The notes under the pieces are model-generated. The model saw only the letters and a program-made list of their open reading frames with translations. It did no database searches and was not told where the DNA came from. From an uncultured Planctomycetota bacterium (GTDB lineage: Bacteria; Planctomycetota; Planctomycetia; Isosphaerales; Isosphaeraceae), in NCBI GenBank assembly GCA_963845755.1, contig CAWJTV010000041.1:718418-782417 (forward strand): DNA of 64,000 nt. Reading direction: 5' to 3'. The position numbers were made by a program, and so were the translations under genes. Positions 17,301 through 32,606 of this stretch are shown here, one piece after another. Every line of letters begins with the position of its first letter. The stretch's first letter is position 1.

Positions 17301-17741
17301 GCCCATGTCGTGGACCTGAACGATATTCGGATGCCGCAATCCGGCCACCGCCTTGGCTTCCCGCAAGAAGCGTGCTCGAGACTCCGGACTGGCGTGCGCA
17401 CCAGTAAGCAGCATCTTGAGGGCGACGGAGCGGTTGAGGCGCACGTGCCGGGCCCTGTAGACGATGCCCATGCCGCCGTGGCCCAGCACCTCCTGAGCTT
17501 CATGACCTGGGATCTGGGGAAGATCGGCTGAGGGCTGCATCGACGATGGGTTGCCGAATGGCGAGTTCGACTCCGACACCGGGAAAAGCGCATCCAGGTG
17601 GGCATCACAGGCGCATTTTCGCTCCCAACGCTCACGGACCTTGGGCAGCAACTCGGGGCAATGGCGGCATACCTCTTCGGGTGTATGCTCCGAGTCCAGG
17701 AGTTGTTCGAGCAGTTGCCCAACGCGCGGGTCGCTGTCCAT
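14370..17741 (-). CDS. Serine/threonine protein kinase with C-terminal TPR repeats
   Basis: 'LGHGGMGIVY', 'VALK', 'HRDLKPAN', 'DFGLA', 'GTPSYMAPE'; TM segment, then TPRs. Confidence 0.95.
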   Translation of the reverse strand: MDSDPRVGQLLEQLLDSEHTPEEVCRHCPELLPKVRERWERKCACDAHLDALFPVSESNSPFGNPSSMQPSADLPQIPGHEAQEVLGHGGMGIVYRARHVRLNRSVALKMLLTGAHASPESRARFLREAKAVAGLRHPNIVQVHDMGEHDGQPYFTMEFVEGGNLAQKLAGTPQPSRQAATLVATLAQAVEAAHQSGIVHRDLKPANILLTADGTPKISDFGLARRLDGEAGLTLTGTTVGTPSYMAPEQAEARPFTCGPAVDIYALGAILYELLTGRPPFRAQTAAETVRQVISQDPVLPSRLNSKVPRDLETICLKCLHKEPHLRYAGAAALAADLRRFLGGEAIAARPDGRLAWLARRVRRRPVLTASVAVGTLFTVALLGGALWLISDRAAVARKAETERIAKEREAGEDLRDMARFLEKSSWPEARAAMERAKGRLGNRGSAELVRLLDQGDRDLELVDRLEEIRLDVARAVLGHLVARTSEQYEKTFRETGIGQVDDAPDVVAARVRASNIPNALVAALDHWSALTKDPRHKDWVLAVARKADRDPTGWRDRARDPVVRAHEKALVELIRTTPVADQSVPLFLALDKQLNPGSKERLPFLNRIQQAHPGDYWANLTLGDVLMREGRVKEAIRYYQASVSIRPRMPLGYEKLAQALSMAGRKKEAIGPFLEAVNLEPTGVFSYMGLAQALGDLGRQDEAIDRLQVAIGSSPNASILYAVLGHYLAEKGQLLEALIPERKAAALAPENPLRQHVLRSLLTRLGRGDEARVAWQTTLEVKPSRHDVWYGYAEFCLFLGQEDEYRRARQALLAKFGASTDPIVAQRTALACLLGPAPEGELRQAAELAELAVGVQPSDYPRVEPLFPFVKGLAEYRQGRFDRAISTMRGDASQVGGPGPGLVLAMALHRSGQSAEARKSLARAVLYYDWRPQTVTTQDAWLRHVLRREAERMILPGLPAFLAGKYQPRDHDEQLALLGACQYTNRTHALSRLYADAFAVDPQIANDVVAGTRYDAARAASLAGRGQGEDAGSLTQEEQARWRMQALAWLKRDLAAWSRKMESSREWDRIVVGLRLTRWLADPDLAGLRIPGAMKWLSVEEREEWLALWNEVEAAINRATNA

Positions 17742-17811
17742 TGGGTGTCTCCAGCCGGTGATGCCGGGATTGGCTATTGAAACTCAACTGACTCGTCGCC
17801 CGTCCACTCAT

Positions 17812-18435
17812 TCATGCCGGAGTCGGTGCCCGCGGTCCCCTTAGCGGCGGCAGATTGTCCAGTTCCTCCGCCAGCAAGAGGCTGGCCCGATTCAGACGCC
17901 GCTGCACTGTCTTGGTCGAGACGTCCAGAACTTCGGCGGCTTCGGTGTGGGTCAACCCCTGCAGGCGCACCAGGCCGAACACTTCGCGCTCATCCTCCGG
18001 CAGATTGTCGATCGCCTCCAACATTCGCCGTCCGTCCGGCGTGATCCCGGAATCGCTGCTGGCCGGGGCAGGCACAAATCCTTCGCGCAATTCCACCACG
18101 GCAGGCTGTTCATCTAAGCGGCGGGCCAGGTCATTGAGCTGCCAGCGCATATGTTGGTTGGCCATCGCAAAGAACTGGCGCACAGTTTGGGGACGAATCG
18201 CACGCATGGCTTTGAGCAACCCCTCCACCACGCCGCCGAGCATTTCCGCGGTCTCCAGATTCACCGGCGGCCCGCTCAATCGTGGGTAACTGCGGTGCAG
18301 CATGTTGGCGCATAGCCTCTCCAGCCGGTGAACGGCCCGGTCCAACAACTCCCGGACAATCGGCTCGGCCGGCGCATCCCCGGCCAGGGCGTTCAGATAG
18401 CGCTGCACGGCAGCGGTGGTGGGTTCTTCATTCAC
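17812..18435 (-). CDS. ECF sigma factor paired with the downstream kinase
   Basis: 'RQFFAMANQHMRWQLNDLAR' and 'LPEDEREVFGLVRLQGLTHTEAAEVLDVSTKTVQRR'. Confidence 0.9.
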   Translation of the reverse strand: MNEEPTTAAVQRYLNALAGDAPAEPIVRELLDRAVHRLERLCANMLHRSYPRLSGPPVNLETAEMLGGVVEGLLKAMRAIRPQTVRQFFAMANQHMRWQLNDLARRLDEQPAVVELREGFVPAPASSDSGITPDGRRMLEAIDNLPEDEREVFGLVRLQGLTHTEAAEVLDVSTKTVQRRLNRASLLLAEELDNLPPLRGPRAPTPA

Positions 18436-18719
18436 GATGATCAACCCTCTTCGAGGTGCCATCCGAAACCGATTTTATCGGGTCCCGTGTCCACCTGCCA
18501 CTCTCAGTAGGTTGGCCGGGGATATGACCGCAATCGCCCTGGTGCGGAACGCCGAGGGTTGTCTGCGACAGGCTGCATTGGTGTGGAGAGGGGTCTTTAG
18601 GGCTTGTCATCCGGATGACAGATCGGCGTCCCGAAGCCGGTTAGCATCTCAACCCGGTGATCAGTCGCAAGTGGACAAAGGAACGACATCACTTTCCCCG
18701 AAATCGAGGAGATCGCACC

Positions 18720-19319
18720 ATGCGCGGATCATACCGGATGAACGAGACCGCGGTTGTCGCGGTCCTGGTCGGAATCGCCGGACTGTCTTTCGTACTGGCC
18801 GGGTCGGACCCGCCGCCCAGCGGCTCGACGGCAGGGGTCGAGTTTACCCCAGAGGGCAAGCTCAAGCAGCCCGTCGGCTATCGCAAATGGGTGTACGTCG
18901 GCACTCCGCTGACCCCCAACGAGCTCAACGACGGTGGGGCTCCATTCCCCGAGTTCCACGCCGTCTATATGGACCCCGAGAGCTTCGCCTACTACGAGAA
19001 GACCGGCGAGTTCCGCGACGGCACCATACTGGTCAAGGAACTCATCAGCGTCGGCCCCAAGGAGGCGACCAGCGGCAAGGGCTACTTCATGGGCGAATTC
19101 CGCGGCCTGGAAACGTCGATCAAGGATTCGAAGCGCTTCAAGGACGAGCCCGGCTCGTGGGCCTACTTCAGCTTCGGCCACAAATACCCGCTCAAGGCGG
19201 AGGTGGCGAAAAACGACGCCGGCTCGTGCAACGCGTGCCACCAAACCAGTGCCGTGAAAGACTACGTCTTCAGCCAGTACTACCCCGTCTTGCGTGCCGC
19301 AGCCCCTCGTACAAAGTAG
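18720..19319 (+). CDS. Cytochrome P460 family protein
   Basis: Signal peptide; 'YRKWVYVG..TPNELN', 'EFRDGTILVKE', 'GYFMGE..GLE', C-terminal CNACH heme motif. Confidence 0.9.
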   Translation: MRGSYRMNETAVVAVLVGIAGLSFVLAGSDPPPSGSTAGVEFTPEGKLKQPVGYRKWVYVGTPLTPNELNDGGAPFPEFHAVYMDPESFAYYEKTGEFRDGTILVKELISVGPKEATSGKGYFMGEFRGLETSIKDSKRFKDEPGSWAYFSFGHKYPLKAEVAKNDAGSCNACHQTSAVKDYVFSQYYPVLRAAAPRTK

Positions 19320-19368
19320 GCTAGACCGGTTGGCACCCCCCTTTCCCTGAACCAAGGTGGCACCCCTC

Positions 19369-19979
19369 ATGAATACCAAGGTCCCCCGCTTGCTGGCCGC
19401 CGGCTGCATGACCGCGGCGGCACTCCTCGCAGCCACGATCGTGCCAGGCGCGGCGCAACCCGCCCAGAAGCCTGGCGCGCAGCCGAAAACTTCTCGCCCT
19501 ACGTCACGAAGGACGGCGGCATTTCAAGGCCGACCGATTACCGCGAAACCTTCCTGCATCTGGGCACCTTCGCCGTGGCCTCGAAGCCGAGCCAGCCCAT
19601 TGATGAGATGCACAACGTCTATTCGCGGCCGGAGGACGTCCGGGCGTATCGCCGGGATGGCAAGTTCCCCGACGGCGCGGTGCTGGTCAAAGAAATCACC
19701 AAGATTGGATCGGAGAAGCTCACCACGGGCCAATCCCACTGGTCCACGGACATCAAGGTCTGGTTCGTGATGATCAAGGACGCGAAGGGTCGATTTCCCG
19801 GCAACGACCTGTGGGGCGACGGCTGGGGCTGGGCCCTCTTCAAGGCGGATGAGCCCGCCCGCAACGTGGCGACCGACTACGACACCGACTGCAAGACGTG
19901 CCACATTCCGGCCAGGAAGGACGATTGGGTGTACGTACGCGGGTATCCGGTACTTGGGAACCGCACCCCGGCCCATTGA
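19369..19979 (+). CDS. Second cytochrome P460 family protein (frameshift near 19490)
   Basis: Signal peptide; 'HNVY', 'GKFPDGAVLVKE', 'GDGWGWALF', CKTCH. Confidence 0.85.
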
Positions 19980-20049
19980 GACGCGGTGTGACCTGGCGAA
20001 TCGAGACAGCACTCTTCCAGCGGTGTTAGCAGTGAGGCACGGTTGTCCC

Positions 20050-20544
20050 ATGGGTGATCGACTGGAATTGATCGGTACGCACGTTTCCCGCTACGGGTTG
20101 GTAATCGTGTTGCTCTGGATCGGCGGGATGAAATTCACGGCCTACGAGGCCGAGGGTATCCGACCACTGGTGGCTAACAGCCCCTTGATGGGTTGGGTCT
20201 ACCACGTCATGAGCGTGAGCGCGTTCTCCTCGTTGCTGGGCGTGGTCGAGATTGTCATCGGGGTGCTGATCGCCCTCCGGCCGGTATGGCCGATGGGTTC
20301 GGCCTTGGGCAGTGGACTCGCAGCGGGGATGTTCCTGACCACGCTGAGCTTCCTGGTCACCACACCCGGTTGGGAAGCAAGTCTGGGCGGCTTCCCGGCC
20401 CTCTCGGCCATGCCGGGGCAGTTCGTCCTCAAGGACGTCGTCCTGTTGGGGGTCGCGCTGCACACTGCGGGCGAGGCCCTGGGGGCAGCCCACCCGCGCC
20501 GTGCCGTCCCGCCGTCATCCAATATGGCGAATGTCTCAGCCTGA
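20050..20544 (+). CDS. DUF417 (YkgB/RclC-like) inner-membrane protein
   Basis: 'RYGLVIVLLWIGGMKFTAYEAEGIRPLVANSPLMGW', 'TTLSFLVTTPG', 'GQFVLKD'. Confidence 0.9.
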   Translation: MGDRLELIGTHVSRYGLVIVLLWIGGMKFTAYEAEGIRPLVANSPLMGWVYHVMSVSAFSSLLGVVEIVIGVLIALRPVWPMGSALGSGLAAGMFLTTLSFLVTTPGWEASLGGFPALSAMPGQFVLKDVVLLGVALHTAGEALGAAHPRRAVPPSSNMANVSA

Positions 20545-20646: not shown

Positions 20647-20716
20647 TAACCAGAAAAATGCAACTTGACAAGTTAGCAATCCGCCCGTAACCTGCATCAT
20701 GAGTATTTTCCAGTTA
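20647..20716 (+). promoter_or_regulatory. Sigma70-like promoter overlapped by tandem TAACC-N19-AGTTA operators
   Basis: TTGACA 20665-70, 17 bp, TAACCT 20688-93; TAACC at 20647 and 20688, AGTTA at 20671 and 20712. Confidence 0.8.
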
Positions 20717-20821
20717 TCCGAATACCTTCGGGTGGCCGCGTCATCGCGACAAGGGTAGGACTGCCACCGATCAAGGCGTGGGAGACTCAGAGATTCACTG
20801 ACCAAACGGGGAGGAGATACC

Positions 20822-21660
20822 GTGAAACAACCCGAACTCTACGAGCGCTTCCGCGCCCTGCATGAACAGGATGGCGGCGTGGTGATGCCGAATCCATGGG
20901 ACGGCGTCTCCGGGTTGCTGCTGAAACAGGCCGGGTTCATGGCTTTGGGCTCGTCATCCGCCGCGATTGCCTTTGCCCTCGGCCGCCTTGACGGCGTGCA
21001 TGCGGTCAGCCTGGCGGAGGCGCTGGAGAATGCCGCCTTGCTCGGCAGGCTCACCGGGCTTCCGATTAACGCCGATCTCGAAGACGGCTTCGGCCCCGCG
21101 CCGAGGATTGCGCCGCGACCGTCGAAGCGGCGATCGCGGCAGGGATGGCCGGGGTCGGTATCGAAGACACGACGGCCAATCCCGAGAAACCGATCCACGA
21201 CTTCGATCACGCCGTCAAGCGGATTCGTCAGGCGGCGCGCGTGGCGAAGGGGCGTATCTTGCTGACCGGACGCACGGACAACTACCTGTTCGGCAGGTCC
21301 GATCTGGACGACACGATCCGGCGCCTCGTCGCGTTCGCCGAAGTCGGCGCCGATGTAATCTATGCGCCACTCCTGCCGGACATGGACGCGATCCGGGCCG
21401 TGGTGAAGGCCGTCGCGCCCAAGCCCGTCAACGTGCTGATCGGTCCTGGGACCGGCCCGGTGCCGATCGCCGAGCTTCAAGCGGCCGGCGTGCGACGCGT
21501 CAGCCTCGGCGCCGCACTTTACTGCCATGCAATGGCGAGCGTCCGGGACGCCGCCGAAGCGCTGGCCACCGGAAACATCGCCCCCGCGGCGGAGGGCCTC
21601 TGGCCGAGCAAGATCATGGGCTTGTTGCGAGAGGCGACGTCGGAGATCGCGTCGTCGTGA
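20822..21660 (+). CDS. Isocitrate lyase/PEP mutase family protein (frameshift near 21100)
   Basis: 'VMPNPWD', 'LPINADLEDGFG', 'GVGIED', 'LTGRTD', 'GADVIYAP', 'GVRRVSLG'. Confidence 0.9.
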
Positions 21661-21798
21661 ATCACGGCGGGCGTCGAGTCTGGCCGACGACGGTATGGGA
21701 TGATCGAGCCGAGGCGCCCCCACCTTGGCCGCACGTCCCGAGATGGCCTCCATCTGGCGGGCGGCCGACCTTGAGGCCAACTTCGGCGAGGCAAGACA

Positions 21799-22305
21799 AT
21801 GGATTATCTAGAATATCATTATAAAATGATAGAATCGCCCGTCGGGAGACTCAAACTCGTCGCGCACGATAAGAGCCTGGTGGCCATCCTCTGGCGGCAA
21901 GACGATCCGCGCCACATCCGGCCGAGCGCCGAGACGGAGGACCGGATGCATCCCGTGCTCCTCGAGACCGAACGGCAGTTGAACGCGTATTTCGACGGAA
22001 GGCGGAAGACGTTCTCCCTCGTGCTCGATTTCGCGGGGACGGAATTCCAGAAGGCCGTCTGGCGCGCCTTGCTGACGATCCCCTTCGGGGAGACCCGGAG
22101 CTACGGGGATATCGCGAAACAAGTCGGCAATGCCAGGGCGATGCGTGCGGTGGGGACCGCCAACGGGAAGAATCCCCTTGCCATCGTCGTCCCTTGCCAT
22201 CGGGTGGTAGGCGCCTCCGGTAGACCGTGTGGGGCCGGGTTCGGGCTCGATGCCAGATTGTTTTTGCTCACATTTGAATCTGATAACAACAACCATCCCG
22301 CATAG
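21799..22305 (+). CDS. ogt: Methylated-DNA-protein-cysteine methyltransferase (copy 1)
   Basis: 'GTEFQKAVW..IPFGETRSY', 'RAVG.ANGKNP', active-site PCHRV. Confidence 0.9.
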   Translation: MDYLEYHYKMIESPVGRLKLVAHDKSLVAILWRQDDPRHIRPSAETEDRMHPVLLETERQLNAYFDGRRKTFSLVLDFAGTEFQKAVWRALLTIPFGETRSYGDIAKQVGNARAMRAVGTANGKNPLAIVVPCHRVVGASGRPCGAGFGLDARLFLLTFESDNNNHPA

Positions 22306-22452
22306 AGGGAATATTCCCGGCCTTCCTGAAGACGAAACTCATTCTCGAATAAACAATCAAACATTATATATGGTTGAGTTGTGCACATGGTATCGCAGAT
22401 CGCCGAGCGTCTTGAAGCCGTTCGTGGGTGTCCCGAGCGTCCGGAGTAGGAA

Positions 22453-22660
22453 ATCGCGGCCTGAAGGGCCGCCGGAACAGAGCCCGGGGTGAAACCCCGG
22501 GAGAGCGAGCACGGCCGACCCCCAAATCCGGTTTGGGCGGCCTGACGGGCCGGAGGAACCGGCGCCGGCACCCCTACAGGGTGCATCGGGAAGGAGAGAG
22601 ATGACCGATCCTCGGGGTTTCATCCCGGGCTTTGCTCCGGCGGCCCTCCAGGCCGCGGGA
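22453..22660. repeat. About 200-bp foldback REP/MITE-like element
   Basis: cgcggcctgaagggccgccggaacagagcccggggtgaaaccccg pairs with cggggtttcatcccgggctttgctccggcggccctccaggccgcg; internal small hairpins. Confidence 0.75.
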
Positions 22661-22743
22661 AATCACCGCGATCCACCCTCAGGCGGTAGGGGCGACCGCG
22701 TTGCCGGTGCGCGTGCAAACGAACCGTTCAGTGCTCGAGGGAG

Positions 22744-23250
22744 ATGAAAATGAGCTACGTCTACAAATCCATGAAATCCCCCGTTGGTAACCTCAAGCTC
22801 GTTGCGAGCGACAAGGGTCTGGCTGCTATCCTCTGGGAGGCCGACGATCCGCGCCGCGTCCGGTTGAGCGCCGAGACGGAGGATAGGACTCATCCCGTGC
22901 TCCTCGAGACGGAACGCCAGTTGAACGAGTATTTCGACGGAAGACGGAAGACGTTCTCCCTTGAACTCGATTTCGCGGGGACCGAATTCCAGAAAAAGGT
23001 GTGGCACGCCTTGCTGACGATCCCCTTCGGGGAGACCCGAAGCTACCGGGATATCGCGAAACAGGTCGGAAATGCCAGTGCGGTCCGTGCGGTGGGGGCC
23101 GCCAACGGCAAGAATCCCATTGCCATCGTCGCCCCTTGCCATCGGGTGATTGGCTCCACGGGCAAGCTGACAGGATTCGCGGGCGGTCTCGAGGCCAAAG
23201 CGCGTTTACTCGCATTGGAAACCGGACGAGAGGGCAAGGTGCAACAATGA
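22744..23250 (+). CDS. ogt: Methylated-DNA-protein-cysteine methyltransferase (copy 2)
   Basis: PCHRVIG..GKLTGFAGG canonical C-terminus. Confidence 0.95.
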   Translation: MKMSYVYKSMKSPVGNLKLVASDKGLAAILWEADDPRRVRLSAETEDRTHPVLLETERQLNEYFDGRRKTFSLELDFAGTEFQKKVWHALLTIPFGETRSYRDIAKQVGNASAVRAVGAANGKNPIAIVAPCHRVIGSTGKLTGFAGGLEAKARLLALETGREGKVQQ

Positions 23251-23350
23251 AAGCTGGCCAGAGCTTTCTCGAGAAAAGGCCGATGCAGTGCATGGAGATC
23301 CGCGGGGGCAACCAGGCGGTCGAAGAGTCCCTTGAGGCACCGGGGCTTAA

Positions 23351-24259
23351 GAGCGACTCGGAAAAAATGAGTTCACTGGCCCAGGAGCCTCAAACAGATC
23401 AAGGAACATGCTAACTTGAGGAACGCGTCTTGAATCTCGGTGAGCCGATCCAAACGGCGGCGCAGCCGGCCGAAGGAGTGCAGCCACGCGATGGTCCGCT
23501 CTACGTACCAGCGGGACTTGCCCAAACCGCTGCCGTGCTCCGTATTGCGGGCCGCCAGCACCGGCGTGGTCCCCCGGCCGCGCAAACCCTGCCGCACCGG
23601 TTCCGAGTCGTAGCCCCGATCCCCCTGCAAGCGGTCGGGCTTCTGCCGCTTCGGCCCCGGCTTGCCGCCCACCGGCGGCATGTCGTCGAGCGTCGTGAAG
23701 ACCTGGGTGATCTCGGGGACGTTGGCGGCGGTCACCGTCGCCGCCAGCGGCACGCCTTGGGCGTCGGTCATCACGTGGTGCTTGCTGCCGGATTTGCTCC
23801 GGTCCGTCGGATTCGGGCCGGTATCCTCGCCCCCTTCCGGGGCCTTGGCGAAGGAGGCGTCGATCAGCGCCCGCTCCCAGTCGATCGCGTCGCGCCGTTG
23901 AGCTCGGCCAGCAAGACGGCGTGCAACTGGCGCCAGACACCGGCCTGCTGCCACGCCTGCAGGTAGGACCGGCAGGTCTTGCCGCAGCCGCAGCCGAGGT
24001 CGGCGGGCAAGTCGTCCCAGGCGATGCCGGTCTTGAGCACGAACAAGATGCCGGTGAGGATCTTGCGGTAGTCCAGGGGTTTGCGTCCCGGGAAGCGGAA
24101 GCGGCGCGGAGGCGGGGGTGGCAGCAAGGGCTCCAGGCGCTTCCACAGCGCATCGGAGACAAGGGGTTTCATGGTGGTCCTCCTTCGGTTCGGGAGATCA
24201 CTCTCCGAAGGACTCAAGAGCAGACAGCGTGCCAGTGGATTCATTTTTTCCGAGCGCTC
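23351..24259 (-). mobile_element. IS5-family insertion sequence (909 bp) with TAA target duplication
   Basis: About 29-bp imperfect terminal inverted repeats GAGCG(A)CTCGGAAAAAATGA.T.CACTGGC; TAA at 23348-50 and 24260-62. Confidence 0.93.
23373..24172 (-). CDS. IS5-family DDE transposase (frameshift near 23890)
   Basis: 'VSDALWKRLEPLLP', 'GILFVLKTGIAW', 'IDASF', 'GSKHHVMTDAQGVPLA', 'GDRGYD', 'RWYVERTIAWL'. Confidence 0.92.
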
Positions 24260-25063
24260 TAAGGAATGGGTATACAGTCGCCCCTACGGGTCGGCGGCCA
24301 GCGGTGGCGACGTCCATTACGTGTCGCTGTGCGCGAGCGGGACCATCTCCCGTTTGATCCTGGCCGACATCTCCGGTCATGGTGTGGAGGTCGCGGGGGT
24401 CGCTACGGCGCTCCGCACGCTGATGGAGAAGAACATCAACGCCGCGGATCAGACCCAGTTGGTCCAGAACATGAATCGCCAGTTCGCCGAGATCGCCGAG
24501 ATGCAGCGTTTCGCGACGGCCGTCGTCGCGACATATCTGACCGTCGACGAAAGCCTCACTGTCTCGAACGCCGGCCATCCGCGCCCGCTGTGGTGTCGTT
24601 CCCAGGACGGCTCGTGGGGTTTCCTGGGCCCGGCCGTCGGCGATGTCGGCAACCTCCCATGGGGGCTCGACGACCAGACGCCCTACCAGCAATTCTCGGT
24701 GCATCTCGCGCGGGGCGACCTCGTCCTGTTCTATTCCGATGCCATGATCGAGGCCGCTGACCCTGCGGGACGGCAGCTCGGCGAAGAAGGGCTGCTGACA
24801 CTGGCACGGGGCCTCGATGCCGAGAATCCGATCCGGGCCGGCCGAGGCTTGCTCGAGTCCGTCGTGGCCCATCGTGGGGGACGGGAGGCCGATGACGACG
24901 TGACAATCGTCGCCTGGCACCATACCGGAAATGATCCGCGACGTTTCCAATGATGTCCAATTTTGATTCGTGATCGACACAGGGTCGCTCAAGAGGCCGG
25001 CTTGTGCTGGCGGAATGGCCTCCCGGTTGATCGCCGTCGCCATTGTCTGAAAAGGATCCTAAC

Positions 25064-26182
25064 ATGTTCAAACCTCCAATAAAATCGCTTTTCTTGCCTC
25101 TGAAGGTCGGCCCGCTCACGCTGTCGCACCGTGTCGTGATGGCGCCACTCACACGCCTCCGTTCAGACCAGCCGGGGGATATCCCCAATGACCTGATGGT
25201 CGAATACTACCGCCAGAGGGCCTCGCGAGGCGGTCTCATCATCACCGAGGCGACCACGATCTCCATCACAGGCCGTGGATATCTCGGTGCACCTGGGATC
25301 TACTCCGACGCGCAGGTCGCCGCATGGCGGAAGGTCACCGACGCGGTCCACGCGAAGGGCGGCTCGATTTTCCTCCAGTTCTGGCACGTCGGGCGTGTCG
25401 GCCACGTGGACATGAGCGGAGGTGCGCCGCCGGTAGCCCCGTCGGTGGTGCCCTTCGAGGGTGTCGTCTTCACGAAGGATGGCTGGGTCCCGGCCTCGCC
25501 GCACCGGGCGCTTGAAACGGAGGAGATTCCCGAGATCGTCGAGGACTACAGGAAGGCCGCCGAGCGTGCCCGGGCCGCCGGTTTCGACGGCGTCGAGGTC
25601 CATGCCGGGAATGGCTACCTCCTTGACCAATTCCTGCAAGATGGCACCAACAGGAGGACGGATGCTTACGGAGGATCGGTGGAGAATCGTGCCCGATTCT
25701 TGTTCGACGTCTTTGAAGCCGTCGCGTCATGGTGGGGTGCGGATCGAGTCGGCGTCAGAGTCTCGCCGAGCACACAGTTCAACGCGATGTCAGACAGCGA
25801 TCCCGGCACCCTGTACGGCCACGTCGCAGGGCGACTGAACGGATACTCGCCCGCCTACCTCCATATCATCGAGCCGCGCATCAAGGGCATTGAGGCCATC
25901 ACGGAAGGCCTGCCCCCGGTGGCGACCGCCCAGCTTCGGAGGTCGTTCACGGGGAATATCCTGTCAGCCGGAGGCTTCGAGCCGGAGAGCGCCGAGGCGA
26001 TCGTGAGGAGCGGGGATGCCGACATGGTCGCGTTCGGCCGGCATTTCATCGCGAACCCCGACCTGCCGGAACGGATCAGGCTCGGCCTGTCGCTCAACAT
26101 CTATGACCGATCCACCTTCTACGGGGGGGATTCCCGCGGCTACACCGATTATTCGTTTTATCATGATCATGCGATGCTTTGA
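25064..26182 (+). CDS. Alkene reductase, Old Yellow Enzyme (NemA/XenB-like)
   Basis: 'VMAPLTRLR', 'GLIITEAT', 'QFWHVGR', 'GFDGVEVHAGNGYLLDQF', 'FGRHFIANPDL', 'TFY..GYTDY'. Confidence 0.95.
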   Translation: MFKPPIKSLFLPLKVGPLTLSHRVVMAPLTRLRSDQPGDIPNDLMVEYYRQRASRGGLIITEATTISITGRGYLGAPGIYSDAQVAAWRKVTDAVHAKGGSIFLQFWHVGRVGHVDMSGGAPPVAPSVVPFEGVVFTKDGWVPASPHRALETEEIPEIVEDYRKAAERARAAGFDGVEVHAGNGYLLDQFLQDGTNRRTDAYGGSVENRARFLFDVFEAVASWWGADRVGVRVSPSTQFNAMSDSDPGTLYGHVAGRLNGYSPAYLHIIEPRIKGIEAITEGLPPVATAQLRRSFTGNILSAGGFEPESAEAIVRSGDADMVAFGRHFIANPDLPERIRLGLSLNIYDRSTFYGGDSRGYTDYSFYHDHAML

Positions 26183-26203
26183 TCGAGTTGGAGGCATGGC
26201 GAG

Positions 26204-27049
26204 ATGAGCTTTTCGAAGTTCGCGAAAACGGACCATCCGATCCACGAATTGCTATCAGATCGCTGGAGCCCCACCGCTTTCTCGAACCGCCCCGTCCCGG
26301 ACGAAGACCTCCGGTCGCTCTTCGAAGCGGCCCGCTGGACGGCCTCGTCCTATAACGAGCAACCGTGGCGCTACGTCGTGGCGACCCGGGCGGACCACGA
26401 AGGCTTCGAGCGGCTGCTCTCCTGTCTTGTTGACGTGAACGCGGCGTGGGCCAAAGAGGCGCCGGTGCTCGCGCTGGCCTGCACACACCTGACCTTCGAC
26501 CGCAACGGCCAGCCCAACGCGGCCGCCGAGCATGACCTTGGGGCGGCCGGCGCCAGCCTGACGCTGGAGGCGACCGCGCGGGGGCTGCGAGTCCACCAGA
26601 TGATCGGCATCCTGCCCGACCGGGCTCGCGAGTTGTACGGCATCCCGGCCGATGTCAGGCCCTTCACATGCCTGGCCATCGGTTACACGGGAGACCCGGC
26701 CGCGTCGTCAAGAGAGATCCGGGAGCGCGACCTCACACCACGACGGCGGAAGCCGTTGTCCGAGTTCGTGTACGAGGAGCATTGGGGGACGGCGTCCGGC
26801 CTCGTGACGCGAGGCATCGAAACCCGTCGCCCGAACCGCATTCGCCGGCGATCCGTACTCACCGGATTCCGGCGCGATTGCCGTGAGAAGCCCGCTTTTC
26901 CTGAACCACTCTTTGACAATCGTCAAAGCTCGTTAGGTCGATCGGATGTACGACTTGTCGCCGAAAGATCATCGATCGGCGATGGACTTTCTTTTCCAGG
27001 AGATCCACCATGTTACACCGCATCACTCTCGGCACCTTGTTGGTGTTGA
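26204..27049 (+). CDS. Nitroreductase family protein (3' end probably overextended)
   Basis: 'RWSPTAF', 'LFEAARWTASSYNEQPWRY', 'HDLGAA', 'VHQMIG'. Confidence 0.85.
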   Translation: MSFSKFAKTDHPIHELLSDRWSPTAFSNRPVPDEDLRSLFEAARWTASSYNEQPWRYVVATRADHEGFERLLSCLVDVNAAWAKEAPVLALACTHLTFDRNGQPNAAAEHDLGAAGASLTLEATARGLRVHQMIGILPDRARELYGIPADVRPFTCLAIGYTGDPAASSREIRERDLTPRRRKPLSEFVYEEHWGTASGLVTRGIETRRPNRIRRRSVLTGFRRDCREKPAFPEPLFDNRQSSLGRSDVRLVAERSSIGDGLSFPGDPPCYTASLSAPCWC

Positions 27050-27980
27050 CGACGCTGGGACTCCCCTCGAAGCGGAGTGCAGCAGCCGAACCGCGACCGC
27101 AGAACCCTCAGGTCGCATATCGAACGGTGAAGACCGACGGAGTCGACATCTTCTACCGGGAGGCCGGTCCGAAAGACGCTCCGGCCATCCTGCTCCTGCA
27201 TGGGTTCCCGTCTTCATCGCACATGTTCCGCAACCTGATTCCACGGCTAGCGGACAGATTCCATGTCGTCGCACCGGATTTCCCGGGATACGGCAACAGC
27301 TCCGCCCCGCCTGTCCAGAAATTCGAGTACACTTACGCACATTTTACAGACGTGATTGAACACTTCACCGAACAGATCGGACTGAAGTCGTACGCGCTTT
27401 ACCTTCAAGACATCGGTTCCTCGGTCGGGTACCGCCTGGCCAGCAAGCATCCGGAGCGTGTGACGGCGCTCGTGATCCAGAACGGCGAGGCTTATCTCGA
27501 AGGTATCAACAAGGAGTTCTTCAAACCACTCGAAGCCTACTGGAAAGTGGCGCACCGAGGAGAATGAGAAAACGTTGCGCTCATGGCTGCTCACGGTGGA
27601 AGGAACCAAATGGCACTACGTCCACGGTGCCCGCGATGCCGAGGCAATCAGCCCCGATAATTGGACCATCGACCAGGCGTTCGAAGATCGCCCAGGCAAT
27701 AAAGAGATTCAGTTGGCGATCTTGTACGACACCCAGACGAATCTGGGGCTTTACTCGACCTGGCAAGCCTACTTTCGAGAGCACCAACCGCCAACTCTCG
27801 TCGTGTGGGGCAAGAACGACGGCATTTTCACCACCGAAGGGCGCCCACCTGTACAAGCGCGATTTGAAGAATATTGAATTCCATCTCCTCGACACAGGTC
27901 ACTTCGCGTTAGAGGAAGACCTGGACCGGATCTCTTCGCTCATGTGTGATTTTCTCGGCCGAACTGTGACCAGGAGGTAG
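27010..27980 (+). CDS. Alpha/beta hydrolase with signal peptide (two frameshifts)
   Basis: 'IFYREAG', '[13 protein letters not shown]', 'APDFPGYG', 'QDIG', 'VWGKND', 'DTGHFALEE'. Confidence 0.88.
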
Positions 27981-28262
27981 CTCGATCATACCGGTGATCG
28001 TGGCCCTCTGCTTGTCGAGAAGAAGGGCGAGCCGGTCCGAGTCAGAATCTGCCATGATCGGTTGATGGAGGGAGAGATGATGGTTCCCATCGCGCCTCAG
28101 GATCGTTCCCAAAGACGTTTGCAGACTCGCAGGAGCTTGCTGCTGCTCTCTCTGTCGCCGGTCATGGCGACCGTGACGACTGCTTATCGGCAAGTCGTCC
28201 CGATCAAGAAGCAACCCCCCGGTGCGAGGTCCCAAATCTCCCCAATCCCAGGAGCAAGCAAC

Positions 28263-28649
28263 ATGCCGCACTCCAACCAAGACATCGGAATTGCCAAGCA
28301 GATCGGCACCTACAGTGACGCCGTCGAGGTGAAGCCCAACTTGCGATGGTTGATGACTTCCGGAACTCCCGGCCTCTCGGAGTCGGGCCAACTTCCTGCG
28401 GACATCACGGGCCAGGCCGAGCTCGCCTGGAAGCATATCATCCGCATGCTGGAAAAAGCCGACATGACCGTCGCCGACGTGGTCAAGGTCTCCCAGTATC
28501 TGACGCGAGCCGAGGACATTCCGGCCTACGTGAAGGTGCGATCACGTTTCCTCGGCGATGCGCGGCCGGCTTTTGTGCTCCTCGTCGTCTCCCAGCTCAT
28601 CCGACCGGGGATTCTGGTGGAGGTCGAGATCGTCGCCGCCAGGGCGTAG
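28263..28649 (+). CDS. RidA/YjgF family protein
   Basis: 'IGTYSDAVEV', 'TSGTPG', 'ITGQAE', 'LVEVEIVAA'. Confidence 0.9.
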   Translation: MPHSNQDIGIAKQIGTYSDAVEVKPNLRWLMTSGTPGLSESGQLPADITGQAELAWKHIIRMLEKADMTVADVVKVSQYLTRAEDIPAYVKVRSRFLGDARPAFVLLVVSQLIRPGILVEVEIVAARA

Positions 28650-28660
28650 GGGGGGAAAAC

Positions 28661-28726
28661 GTGTCACATCCCGAGGAATTCGACGTGCCGGTGCTCGGCC
28701 GCGGGACGGGCAGGTACGTCGCCTGA
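28661..28726 (+). pseudogene. N-terminal remnant of a pyridine nucleotide-disulfide oxidoreductase
   Basis: VSHPEEFDVPVLGRGTGRYVA* resembles MSSREKYDLVVLGSGRGRFFAW at 31191. Confidence 0.6.
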
Positions 28727-28750
28727 TGGATCCCAAGGAGCAAGAATCCC

Positions 28751-29173
28751 ATGAACATTCAGGCAGAAATCCGCCACGTCTACGAGCGTTGGCACGAGAT
28801 GATCGTGAGCCGCAATCTCGATGGTCTGATGGAGCTCTATGCCGAGGATTCCGTCCTCGAGAGCTCCGCGGTCCTTGTCCTGGAGAAAAACAGCACGGGT
28901 GTCTTGAAGGGGCGCGATCGCATCAAGAAGCATTTCGCCGCCTTCTTCGACATGATGAAGCAGGACGCTGCCGTCGAGCTGTACCGACCCGGCACTTTCT
29001 TCTCCGATGGCAAGACGCTGGTGTGGGAGTATCCGAGCAAGACGCCTCGAGGCGATCAGTTGGACGTCGTCGAATCCATGGATCTCGAGAACGGACGGAT
29101 CGCCTATCACCGCGTCTACTGGGGTTGGATCGGCTTCAAGGCCCTCTGGGCCGCAGCCGACCGGTCGAAGTGA
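28751..29173 (+). CDS. SnoaL/NTF2-like protein
   Basis: 'LYAEDSVLES', 'GRDRIKKHF', 'LVWEYP', 'GRIAYHRVYWGW'. Confidence 0.85.
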   Translation: MNIQAEIRHVYERWHEMIVSRNLDGLMELYAEDSVLESSAVLVLEKNSTGVLKGRDRIKKHFAAFFDMMKQDAAVELYRPGTFFSDGKTLVWEYPSKTPRGDQLDVVESMDLENGRIAYHRVYWGWIGFKALWAAADRSK

Positions 29174-29221
29174 CGTCTGCACCTTTCGCCAATCGACATT
29201 CGCGGATCGAAGATGAGTTTC

Positions 29222-29895
29222 TTACCTCGAATTGCGATTGCGAGATGCCCGGGCGCGGTGCGCCGCGGCCTTTGCGCGGTTTCCGCAGAGGGCCATGCTG
29301 CACCATCGTCTGGCGTGGGCCTTCGTCTTGTCGAGGAAAAGCAGGACGCAGCCCTTGCCCTCGCAGGCACGGACCAGTCGGAAGTCTTCGTTGCAGACCA
29401 GGTCGGCGATCGCCTCCGCGAGCGGCTGCAAGAGCTGCTCGGCGCGGTCCATCGCCGCACTCTTTGCAGGCGAAGCGGGCCTTGGTCGAGGGCCGGTGCC
29501 GCCTCCAGGTCACCACCGCCCTCGACCTGCCAGTAAGAATCGCTTCGCGCGAGCAGGTCATTCAGCGGGCCCAGCTCCGCTGCGGCTCCTGGTCCGAGTT
29601 CGCGCCCGGCATGTCGCGCGACGAACCCTCGCAGCCATTCGCGCAGGGTCCTGGCCCGCTCGGCGAGCTCGTTGAGCGCCTCGCGGGCGCCCGCATGCTC
29701 TCGGAAGCGGCGCGCGTCTGCCCCCTCGATGGCGCCGGCCTCCTCGAGCCAGTCGAGGAGTTCGGTCCCATCGCGCAGCCACTCCGTCCAGACGCCGAGC
29801 GGCGTGGACCGGCTATTGACGAAGTCCAGAGCCAGGTGGTCGCCGGTAAAGAACGCGGGAGGAAGGGTCTTGGGGTCGGGAGGCAAGTTTTCCAT
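29222..29895 (-). CDS. ABATE domain / CGNR zinc-finger putative transcriptional regulator (frameshift near 29445)
   Basis: 'GDHLALDFVNS' N-terminus; 'RACEGKGCVLLFLDKTKAHARRWCSMALCGNRAK'. Confidence 0.9.
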
Positions 29896-29940
29896 CTTCA
29901 GGGGCACCTGAGGGATTGTTTCTCTGATCCAATTCAATAG

Positions 29941-30010
29941 TAACCTCCAAAATCCTGTTGGACAAGTTAATAGACTGGCCATAACCTTCGTTGAAGGCAT
30001 TGTCCGGTTA
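29941..30010 (+). promoter_or_regulatory. Sigma70-like promoter overlapped by tandem TAACC-N19-RGTTA operators, in the divergent region of the CGNR gene
   Basis: TGGACA 29959-64, 17 bp, TAACCT 29982-87; TAACC at 29941 and 29982, AGTTA at 29965, GGTTA at 30006. Confidence 0.8.
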
Positions 30011-30107: not shown

Positions 30108-30983
30108 ATGAGATTCTCATCACCGATCGAAGGTTTTCGACTCGCCTATGATCGGGTCGGCTCCGGCCCACCCGTTATCCTCTTACACGGTTGGCCCGGC
30201 GATCGGACCGACTATCGGGAACTGGTGCCGCTCCTGGCCGGCTCTGCCGAAGTCGTGGTGCCCGACCTGCGCGGCTTCGGGCACTCCGAAAAGCACCTCG
30301 ACGAGCCGGAGCAGGCCTATTCGGGGGCGGCGCAAGCCCGGAGCATCGCCGGGTTGATCGACGAGTTGGGGCTGGGTCCCGCCGTGATCGCGGGTTACGA
30401 CGTCGGAAGCTTCGTCGCCCAGACCGTCGCCAGGACGCGGCCGGATCTGGTGCGTGCCCTCGTCGTCTCTCCGCCGCTCCCCGGCGCGGGCAGGAGGGTG
30501 CTGTCCCCGGAGGCGGCGCGGGAGTTCTGGTATCCCCCCTTTCACCGCCTCGACCTTGCCGAACAGCTTATCGACGGGAATCCCAAAGCGGTTCGCGCAT
30601 ACTTGCGGCACTTCTGGTCGCACTGGTCGGGGCCGAACTATGAAGTTGACGACGCCGATCTCGATCACCTCGTGGGCGTCTATTCTGCTCCCGGCGCCTT
30701 CACGGCGTCGGTCGGGTGGTATCGCTCGTCATCCAGCCCGGACGTCGCCTATGTCGCCGAGATCGCGCCGGAGCGGGTAGACCGGATCAGCATTCCCACG
30801 ACCGTCCTCTGGCAGGAATTCGACCCGATCTTCCCGAGAGAATGGTCCGATCGCCTGGATGAGTTCTTCGCCGACGTGTCCCTGGAGATGCTCAACGGGG
30901 TCGGTCACTTCACGCCGCTGGAGGCTCCTGACCGGATCGCTTCGGCCATCAAGAAACGACTCGCGGCGCCTGACGACCGGTGA
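30108..30983 (+). CDS. Epoxide hydrolase-like alpha/beta hydrolase
   Basis: 'LLHGWPG', 'VPDLRGFGHS', 'GYDVG', 'GVGHFTPLEAP'. Confidence 0.9.
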   Translation: MRFSSPIEGFRLAYDRVGSGPPVILLHGWPGDRTDYRELVPLLAGSAEVVVPDLRGFGHSEKHLDEPEQAYSGAAQARSIAGLIDELGLGPAVIAGYDVGSFVAQTVARTRPDLVRALVVSPPLPGAGRRVLSPEAAREFWYPPFHRLDLAEQLIDGNPKAVRAYLRHFWSHWSGPNYEVDDADLDHLVGVYSAPGAFTASVGWYRSSSSPDVAYVAEIAPERVDRISIPTTVLWQEFDPIFPREWSDRLDEFFADVSLEMLNGVGHFTPLEAPDRIASAIKKRLAAPDDR

Positions 30984-30984
30984 T

Positions 30985-31180
30985 CTCCCGAAGGAGAAGG
31001 GGGTCACGGGCCAGATGGAGCGCGCCGGCATGACGGTCGCCGACGTGGTTGAGGTTGTCCGATATCTCACGCGTGCCGAAGATATCCAATCCTACGTGAA
31101 GGTGCGGAGCCGTTTCCTGAGCGGGGCACCGCCCGCATCCAGGCTCCTTGTCGTTTCCCAGTTCGTGTGGCCCGAGTTCC
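30985..31180 (+). pseudogene. RidA remnant (internal fragment)
   Basis: 'MTVADVVEVVRYLTRAEDIQSYVKVRSRFLSGAPPA..LVVSQ' closely matches the RidA at 28263. Confidence 0.85.
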
Positions 31181-31190
31181 GGAGGCAAAC

Positions 31191-32606
31191 ATGTCATCTC
31201 GCGAAAAATACGACCTGGTAGTGCTCGGCAGCGGGAGGGGCCGGTTCTTCGCCTGGTCGCTGGCTTCGCAAGGGAAGCGGGCGGCGGTCGTCGAGCGGAA
31301 GTATGTCACGGGATCCTGTCCCAGCATCGCGTGCCTCCCCAGCAAGCACCTGATCCACGGCGCGAAGGTTGCCAGCTATTTCCGCAGGGGCGCCGAGTTC
31401 GGAATCACCCCGGGCGACTGGAAAGTCGAGATGCCCGCCGTACGAGACCACAGGCGGAAGATGATCGATGGGATGGTCGATCTGAATCATCAGAACTATC
31501 GAGAGAGCGGCGCGGAACTCGTCATGGGGCAAGGCTGGTTCGTCGGGCCGAAGACGATCGAGGTGGCGACCACCAACAGCGGGCCGCGCACCCTCCGCGG
31601 CGACGTCGTCGTGATCAGCACGGGCTCCCGTGCTCGGATCGACCCGATCCCGGGCCTCGCCGAGGCGCGGCCGATGACGCACATCGAGCTCCTCGATCTG
31701 GACCGCGTCCCGAACCACCTCCTTGTCCTGGGGGGCGGCTACGTCGGATTGGAGCTGGCCCAGGCGATGCGACGCTTCGGCAGCCGCGTGACGCTCATCG
31801 AGCGGAACGACGACCTGGCCCACCAGGAGGACCGCGACGTCTCGGAGGCCCTGCGGGAGCTCTTCGACGACGAGGGGATCGAGGTCCGCACGGGCATGCG
31901 CGTCGACCGCGTCGAGGGGCGTTCCGGCGAGTCCGTGAGGCTGCACGCGACGCGTGACGGAGCAGGGGTCTTGCTCGAGGGCTCGGACATCCTGGTCGCG
32001 AGCGGACGGACGCCGAACACCGACGGCATCGGCCTGGAAGCTGCCGGGATCGAGCGGGACGACCGGGGTTTCGTCAAGGTCGACGAGCGGCTCCGGACCA
32101 CGGCACCCGGCGTATGGGCGGTGGGCGATTGCGCCGGGAGCCCTCACTTCACGCACATCGCCGACGATGATGTCCGCGTGGTCCGCGACAACCTCGCCGG
32201 CATCGACCGAACGACGACCGGCCGTCTCGTGCCTTTTTGCTTGTTCACCGATCCCGAGCTAGCCCGGGTCGGCCTGAGCGAGTCGGAGGCGGCGAGTCGT
32301 GGGATCGCCTACCGGCTCGCGAAGATCCCCGTGACCATGGTCCTCCGCTCCCGGACCCTCTCCGAGACACGCGGATTCTACAAGGCCCTGGTCGCCGCCG
32401 ACAGCGACCGCATCCTCGGCTTCACGGCGTTCGCCCCCGAGGCCGGCGAGGTCCTGGCGGCCGTCCAGGTCGCGATCGCCGCAAGCCTCCCTTACACGTC
32501 CCTGCGCGACGCGATCCTGACCCATCCGACGATGGCGGAAGGGCTCGCCACGCTCTTCAGCCAGGTGCCGGCCCGCTCCGACGCCACGGCGGTCGCGGCT
32601 TCATAA
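31191..32606 (+). CDS. Pyridine nucleotide-disulfide oxidoreductase (RclA/MerA-like, no MerA C-terminal Cys pair)
   Basis: 'GSCPSIACLPSK' redox disulfide; 'LVLGGGYVGLE', 'GRTPNT', 'WAVGD', 'THPTMAEG'. Confidence 0.9.
   Translation: MSSREKYDLVVLGSGRGRFFAWSLASQGKRAAVVERKYVTGSCPSIACLPSKHLIHGAKVASYFRRGAEFGITPGDWKVEMPAVRDHRRKMIDGMVDLNHQNYRESGAELVMGQGWFVGPKTIEVATTNSGPRTLRGDVVVISTGSRARIDPIPGLAEARPMTHIELLDLDRVPNHLLVLGGGYVGLELAQAMRRFGSRVTLIERNDDLAHQEDRDVSEALRELFDDEGIEVRTGMRVDRVEGRSGESVRLHATRDGAGVLLEGSDILVASGRTPNTDGIGLEAAGIERDDRGFVKVDERLRTTAPGVWAVGDCAGSPHFTHIADDDVRVVRDNLAGIDRTTTGRLVPFCLFTDPELARVGLSESEAASRGIAYRLAKIPVTMVLRSRTLSETRGFYKALVAADSDRILGFTAFAPEAGEVLAAVQVAIAASLPYTSLRDAILTHPTMAEGLATLFSQVPARSDATAVAAS

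Follow-up and report, generated by a model that had tools for sequence, protein, structure and literature searches.

A twin TAAC-N21-GTTA box as the very probable operator of one clade of ABATE/CGNR zinc-finger regulators

Introduction

In the literature open to our search, which excluded subscription journals, regulon databases and the supplements of bioRxiv, the ABATE/CGNR family of zinc-finger proteins was represented by one structure and by no operator or other DNA site, target or signal. The structure is that of Jann_2411 (PDB 3H0N; ABATE + zf-CGNR), which was proposed to be a dimeric, ligand-gated regulator; the protein is probably a dimer, and its zinc finger is basic (Bakolitsa et al., PMC2954205). 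Genes of the family are common in soil bacteria, with 8 and 12 in two actinomycete genomes. Here we analyze a stretch of 64,000 nucleotides, called the window, from an uncultured planctomycete of the Isosphaeraceae (contig CAWJTV010000041.1, positions 718,418 to 782,417), in which an ABATE/CGNR gene lies beside one of two pairs of palindromic boxes. On sequence grounds the boxes are very probably a conserved operator, cognate to one clade of this uncharacterised regulator family. The window regulator resembles Jann_2411 in having the same two domains and a four-cysteine treble-clef finger; among solved structures Jann_2411 alone was significantly related to it, with E values of 1.3e-12 in the sequence comparison and 5e-6 in the fold comparison, at 21% identity. 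Jann_2411 differs in lacking a fifth cysteine, and the accessible part of the paper on it names no DNA site, target or signal, whereas the window system has a predicted site, promoter placement and targets. With a predicted site, promoter position, target set and candidate sensor residue in hand, the 2010 prediction can be put to a direct test.

Other known systems resemble this one in part. Divergent modules of the TetR/tetA type share with it a one-component regulator encoded at the locus, a pair of palindromic operators placed on divergent promoters that overlap and, probably, autoregulation. In contrast to them, the CGNR protein is a zinc-finger and not a helix-turn-helix protein, its short half-sites lie 25 bp apart centre to centre, and the spacing varies between clades by about one helical turn. 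The electrophile and reactive-chlorine regulons, NemR-nemA-gloA, RclR-rclABC and YodB/QsrR/HypR, are alike in cargo (NemA-like, RclA-like, azoreductase, quinone reductase, nitroreductase, glyoxalase-like and AhpD-like proteins) and in a spare cysteine in the regulator. Their regulators have an unrelated fold, the CGNR cargo is mostly alpha/beta hydrolases and type II haloacid dehalogenases, and the window enzymes fall below curated cut-offs. MerR/SoxR promoters likewise have dyad elements around a sigma70 spacer that often exceeds 17 bp, but the fixed CGNR unit flanks the spacer and is not centred on it, and there is no MerR domain.

Results

Two pairs of boxes in the window

The original prediction described an identical tandem motif, TAACC-N19-RGTTA repeated with an exact 41-bp period, at two places about 9 kb apart. 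All four copies were found, at 20647-20675, 20688-20716, 29941-29969 and 29982-30010, with no other match in the window (mean 0.02 and maximum 2 in 100 shuffles of the window). Site A (20647-20716) and site B (29941-30010) each consist of two tandem boxes with a period of 41 bp. "Identical" was too strong a word for them: outside the 16 core bases only 29 of 54 positions are shared, against 13/60 and 10/60 in the flanks, and much of the excess is accounted for by an extended half-site and the -35. The elements are as follows; scores are from a box matrix trained on 65 box pairs taken from other genomes, and G255 is a relative in the same family and a different genus.

20647..20675, no strand: putative operator box A1, TAAC-N21-GTTA; contains the -35; score 30.9, the best in the genome; kept in G255
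20665..20670, plus: predicted -35 TTGACA of promoter A, inside box A1
20688-20693, plus: predicted -10 TAACCT of promoter A, 17 bp after the -35
20688..20716, no strand: putative operator box A2; starts with the predicted -10 TAACCT and spans the likely start site; score 24.2
29222..29895, minus: ABATE + CGNR zinc-finger regulator; one-base frameshift near 29439
29941..29969, no strand: putative operator box B1; 45 bases before the regulator ATG; score 27.5; kept in G255
29959-29964, plus: predicted -35 TGGACA of promoter B, inside box B1; TAACCT at 29982 lies 17 bp on
29969-29964, minus: possible regulator -10 TAACTT, inside box B1
29982..30010, no strand: putative operator box B2; starts with the predicted -10 TAACCT (29982-29987); score 21.8

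In the source genome (14.27 Mb, 64% GC), twin TAAC-Nx-GTTA motifs (inner spacing 15-27, gap 8-20) occurred only at sites A and B and only with an inner spacing of 21. Single TAAC-N21-GTTA showed no genome-wide excess (10 matches compared to 6-15 at most other spacings). The four window boxes were the only 21-spaced boxes in the genome scoring 17 or more, which rules out a genome-wide regulon and indicates that the regulon is local, comprising two promoters. A lone 22-spaced box at C22:84667 scored 27.1 and may be a target or chance. TAAC-N17-GTTA had 26 matches in this genome, compared to about 10 at other spacings; three of these are one repeat and several end in CGTTA, as in extracytoplasmic function (ECF) sigma promoters.

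Association of the boxes with CGNR genes

The original prediction was to be abandoned if the motif proved not to be enriched next to CGNR genes. The enrichment was found from both directions. A motif-first scan with TAAC-N21-GTTA-N12-TAAC-N21-GTTA, which used no protein information, gave at least 121 loci, 80 of them with flanks, and 67 of these 80 had a zf-CGNR gene. At least five phyla are represented among the 67 loci: Pseudomonadota (51), Actinomycetota (4), Planctomycetota (4), Acidobacteriota (3) and Nitrospirota (1), with 4 unassigned. Among the 13 misses, 8 were low-scoring and 1 intermediate (chance or repeats); the four high-scoring ones had, respectively, an ABATE match alongside, a contig end, a CGNR gene 3.6 kb off and a CGNR gene about 40 kb off. 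On a quick tree of 128 rows, every motif-first protein included fell within a single clade of 84 rows (support 96), and proteins of this clade are referred to hereafter as in-clade.

The gene-first query was an alignment of 24 clade proteins, many of them from motif-first loci, and the sample was the best 80 of 593 metagenome relatives, ranked by protein similarity alone. Upstream sequence of 150 nt or more was available for 78 CGNR frames; 74 of them had an exact box there and 63 had two or more, while only 2 of 78 had one downstream. In shuffled upstream regions the count averaged 0.2 and never exceeded 2. The median pairwise identity of this set was 60%, and the box was present in 20 of 21 clusters at 70% identity.

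Whole genomes gave the same association, in numbers that are tallies and not a test since the kin are not independent: within a single alphaproteobacterial order the twin motif occurred in 5/121 genomes, the very five that carry an in-clade gene (among them the centre genome, which had been picked by motif), in 0/18 with only other CGNR clades and in 0/98 without a CGNR match. Among relatives of the source genome it occurred in 6/81, all of them among the 14 CGNR-positive genomes, and in 0/67 without a CGNR match.

Spacer classes across the family

To the quick tree a FastTree was added, and spacers were counted upstream of 144 genes from genome samples, with motif-first loci and two unpublished genomes set aside. 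TAAC-Nx-GTTA peaked at N10 (9), N11 (6), N20 (30) and N21 (36), with downstream counts of 2 or fewer; lesser counts at N1, N2 and N12 (6, 10 and 5) were taken as internal to the half-site. A spacing of 21 was found in 27 of 32 in-clade genes and a spacing of 20 in 29 of 112 others. When mapped on the tree, the spacer class of 74 single-class genes required 10 changes, compared to a shuffled minimum of 27. By these counts the 21-bp spacing belongs mainly to one protein clade, others having the TAAC half-site at 10, 11 or 20 bp, so that spacer class might serve as a rule to assign regulons to paralogs. The short- and long-spacer groups differ by about one helical turn, and no protein column cleanly separates them, only weak differences being seen.

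Many actinobacterial paralogs have no TAAC box of any class. One 19-row actinobacterial CGNR clade (L135, L142, L143, L145, L354, L356, L358, L360-L367, L369, L371, L374 and L375) has no TAAC box at 10, 11, 19, 20 or 21 bp and probably reads a different sequence. At a Sodalis locus (L391:4682-4930) both kinds of box, a pair with a spacing of 20 and one with a spacing of 21, adjoin a single gene; some CGNR proteins may thus tolerate both spacings.

Anatomy of the boxes and promoters

As the original prediction had it, the first box covers a -35 and the second begins at a -10 after a 17-bp spacer; this arrangement, of the sigma70 type, was read at both sites, while a simple promoter scan of the window reported neither predicted promoter. 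The exact 41-bp period holds at both window sites, but across loci it ranges from 39 to 44. In the 65 pairs the inner spacing was fixed at 21 bp and the gap between boxes took every value from 10 to 15 bp (2, 5, 22, 22, 11 and 3 pairs), indicating that the unit is the single 29-bp box. A fixed 41-bp period and a central palindrome were ruled out as the unit by the variable gap.

The half-site RTAACY is present in all four arms, together with a weaker T and an A-rich tail, and the box centre is 64% A/T compared to 43-45% in gap and flank. The outer arms, which lie beyond any -35 or -10, have TAAC in 97-100%. The inner arm nearest the regulator is TGTCAA, with at most one mismatch in 62 of 65 gene-first pairs and exactly in 52, while the remaining three arms match it as closely in just 6, 19 and 7 of 65. 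Read toward the divergent gene this arm is TTGACA, placing a predicted near-consensus promoter beneath the boxes. In the 40 of 65 pairs that had a -10 of the form TAnnnT toward the target, with spacers of 16-20, this hexamer invariably opened the second box. One box is thus predicted to lie over the -35 and the other over the -10 and start site. The TAACTT of box B1 as a regulator -10 would fit autoregulation, though it is partly forced by the box consensus. Across taxa, a conserved palindrome was found upstream of the regulator and, by its sequence, overlapping the predicted target -35/-10.

The regulator

The gene beside site B had been called an ABATE/CGNR gene, and profiles bore out both domains in a frameshift-split gene: ABATE (PF07336) at 64.1 bits (cut-off 24.4, E 2.6e-17) and zf-CGNR (PF11706) at 70.1 bits (cut-off 24, E 1.4e-19). 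It is the only zf-CGNR match in the source genome. The C-terminal domain has four zinc cysteines and an exact CGNR motif, and the protein has a fifth cysteine beside the finger. As assembled, the two domains are not in one frame; they are in the G255 ortholog (85-90% identical). The regulator and the first gene of the site A run, a mutase, are each one base short in a G/C run relative to G255, where both are intact. Copies of an insertion sequence (IS) element in the genome show scattered one-base indels, and two sequencing runs show an extra A behind 23891. Taken together, these observations led us to read the frameshifts as assembly noise, and that of the regulator is probably an assembly error; no same-strain read in the runs examined spans the break near 29439. 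The IS5-like copy in the window is without an A that most copies and two sequencing runs have.

A structure model of the G255 ortholog had a pLDDT of 89.4, with 3h0n as the top Foldseek match (probability 1.00), and a homodimer prediction, given no weight either way, scored 0.74 compared to 0.66 for a control. The fifth cysteine, a candidate sensor residue, lies ten residues ahead of the first zinc ligand. It was present in 128 of 164 in-clade proteins, a count that takes in motif-first loci, and in 4 of 60 others, and is confined to a subclade (19/19 rows) that includes the window protein.

Conservation in G255 and distal sites

G255 retains the gene order and a twin box upstream of the mutase, with a gap of 13. 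Identity is 69% in this distal pair compared to 89% in the gene, and the cores are intact. At site B, G255 has the proximal box only, directly before the disulfide oxidoreductase. Both window sites have separate G255 orthologs. The 793 kb of flanks held 24 additional 21-spaced boxes, compared to 0, 3, 0 and 0 at spacings of 19, 20, 22 and 23, and in Neorhizobium four box sites lie within 5 kb around one gene. A separation of 9 kb is therefore ordinary for this clade.

Genes beside the boxes

Site B has the regulator on one side, on the minus strand, and on the other side three plus-strand genes: an alpha/beta hydrolase, a Rid fragment and a disulfide oxidoreductase. The genes that follow site A are all on the plus strand and converge on the regulator. 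With an IS5 element within this 20.8-29.2 kb run, control of the whole of it by site A is unproven.

20822..21660, plus: phosphoenolpyruvate (PEP) mutase/isocitrate lyase family; PF13714 in both halves; frameshift near 21103; first gene after promoter A
21799..22305, plus: Ogt-like O6-alkylguanine transferase 1; PF01035 + PF02870; diverged C-terminus
22744..23250, plus: Ogt-like O6-alkylguanine transferase 2; profile match; ortholog in G255
23247..24953, plus: SpoIIE/PP2C-like, split by an IS5-like element; PF07228, DDE_Tnp_1; start and interruption read from the sequence
About 23351-24262: IS5-like element in the SpoIIE-like gene; about 20 copies in the genome
25043..26182, plus: old yellow enzyme, NemA-like; PF00724; PRK10605 at 392.5 bits, cut-off 403
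26204..27049, plus: nitroreductase family; PF00881, residues 19-161
27010..27980, plus: alpha/beta hydrolase, haloalkane dehalogenase/epoxide hydrolase type; frameshifted; below cut-offs
28263..28649, plus: Rid (RidA/YjgF) family; PF01042
28751..29173, plus: SnoaL-like; PF12680; converges on the regulator
30108..30983, plus: alpha/beta hydrolase divergent from the regulator; PF00561
30985..31221, plus: Rid-family fragment; 70% identical to part of a G255 Rid protein; no Pfam match
31167..32606, plus: pyridine nucleotide-disulfide oxidoreductase; PRK06370/RclA/MerA-like, below all cut-offs shown

Alpha/beta hydrolases of the haloalkane dehalogenase/epoxide hydrolase type are the commonest neighbours of the regulator clade. 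Within 3.5 kb of 166 in-clade genes, hydrolase clusters were found in 116 and 62 loci, type II haloacid dehalogenases in 18, disulfide oxidoreductases in 11, AhpD-like proteins in 5 and azoreductases in 5. The haloacid dehalogenase was the only neighbour enzyme type to pass its curated cut-off; the NCBIfam cut-offs were missed for RclA (338.9/740), NemA (392.5/403) and RclC (97.8/275). Together with the Ogt, old yellow enzyme, nitroreductase and Rid genes of the window, these neighbours suggest, by the general functions of such enzymes, a defence against reactive electrophiles.

A twin box (L388:5873-5945) lies beside the CGNR gene of Paraburkholderia caribensis MBA4, a haloacid degrader, and a close relative of MBA4 has a type II haloacid dehalogenase next to its CGNR gene. 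According to the accessible part of one report, a CGNR gene is among those induced in sulfur starvation (PMC9976334). Burkholderia SFA1 has an intact ortholog (BSFA1_60380) whose twin box lies at L393:3371-3441; locus tags of this strain are absent from the readable supplementary files of PMC8571283.

Discussion

We consider it likely that the boxes are the sites of neighbouring ABATE/CGNR repressor dimers, placed over the -35 and the -10 at both sites. Each RTAACY-N19-RGTTAY (29 bp) would be the site for one dimer. At A and at B alike, a pair of dimers would then sit on a sigma70-type promoter, over its -35 and its -10/start site; the regulator's own overlapping promoter would probably be covered too, giving autoregulation. 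That the protein binds, with one zinc finger per TAAC half-site and centres 25 bp apart, is the part we hold with most confidence. Repression and not activation is also likely, since a near-consensus promoter buried under the operators points to repression. There is perhaps an even chance that a reactive electrophile or an oxidant releases the protein, through either the ABATE pocket or the clade-specific fifth cysteine. The detoxification gene cluster is predicted to be off until chemical stress.

Several observations weigh against this interpretation. The window regulator gene is frameshifted as assembled, a target-direction TAnnnT -10 was found in only 40 of the 65 pairs, the regulator's own promoter has no clear -35, and none of the reductases attains its curated cut-off. 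The association is also imperfect: of the 14 CGNR-positive relatives, 8 do not have the exact twin, the exact box is missing from about 15% of the in-clade genes in the genome samples, and 9 of 112 out-of-clade genes have one. The box is still present with 34 of 36 in-clade proteins that lack the fifth cysteine, motif-first loci included, so this residue is not needed for the system. Finally, a different factor that invariably accompanies the CGNR gene would give the same co-occurrence.

The form that such a factor might take is another regulator tied to the hydrolase genes, with the CGNR gene a co-regulated passenger. The divergent gene is indeed an alpha/beta hydrolase in 113 of 157 loci, and a few neighbourhoods contain LysR and HxlR genes, but no other regulator recurs beyond a handful of 166 loci, and the box is kept when the divergent gene encodes a quinone oxidoreductase, an azoreductase, a PNPOx-like protein, a short-chain dehydrogenase/reductase or a disulfide oxidoreductase. 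The box is also missing beside a hydrolase homolog of 64% identity on contig C38, and we regard the passenger explanation as very improbable. We give still less credence to a motif that is promoter only, either back-to-back overlapping sigma70 promoters or an ECF sigma promoter (GTAAC...CGTT). TAACCT/TAACTT and TTGACA do lie within the motif, an ECF sigma gene is present at 17812-18462, and ECF16 promoters start with GTAAC (accessible part of PMC3420878). The ECF16 pattern given there, GTAAC-N14/16-(Y)CG(W), has a spacing of N14-16 and a non-palindromic -10, however, and the boxes do not conform to it. Nor would a promoter require TAAC in the outer arms, a spacing that tracks the CGNR tree, or the absence of the twin motif from both sets of sampled genomes without a CGNR match.

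A CGNR protein that binds but activates, by re-twisting an over-long spacer in the manner of MerR/SoxR or by switching while bound, seems improbable to us, though it would make sense of the near-perfect -35 and of the spacers of 18-20 bp to TAACCT in 36 of 65 pairs (gap 13-15), over-long promoter spacers being the hallmark of MerR. MerR-type operators have a fixed dyad in a 19-20 bp spacer. Here it is the 21-bp box that is fixed, while the central GTTA-N-TAAC varies over 10-15 bp; both window promoters have the optimal 17-bp spacer, the second box lies over the -10 and start site, and single boxes are common. It is also improbable that the binding model is right but the locus is decaying, with a regulator pseudogene and relic sites of which A is perhaps a copy of B. 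The frameshifts in the regulator, the PEP mutase and a hydrolase, the IS5 insertion, the Rid fragment and the non-core identity between A and B would all be expected of decay. Against it, each break is the loss of one base from a short run of G/C and is not found in G255, the indels among IS copies and the extra A in two runs are as in a noisy assembly, and the sites have their own G255 orthologs with intact cores.

Repression by dimers on single 29-bp boxes is thus the interpretation that we prefer. A broader proposal is less probable than not: ABATE/CGNR proteins might be widespread zinc-finger repressors that all share the TAAC half-site and use a dimer ruler of 10-11 or 20-21 bp, one helical turn apart, with cross-talk between paralogs of the same genome avoided through geometry and not through a code of bases, and the window clade, with its fifth cysteine, might be a new thiol sensor of alkylating electrophiles that controls alkylguanine repair jointly with hydrolases and reductases. 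Since its site is long and rare, such a compact repressor might find use in biosensors.

Other features of the window

Some 100 bp separate site A from the end of a DUF417 gene (RclC-like, below cut-off; 19849-20544). On a Pseudomonas plasmid, too, the module has a DUF417 gene next to it, and none was found in the G255 stretch examined. Between the two ogt genes lies a GC-rich inverted-repeat element (22440-22620), and loose contig ends gather near 22456, as with a dispersed repeat. There was no phage match. An ECF sigma factor and a Ser/Thr kinase-like gene are divergent from two cytochrome P460-family genes (14370-19979), and the order of the sigma and P460 genes is retained in G255.

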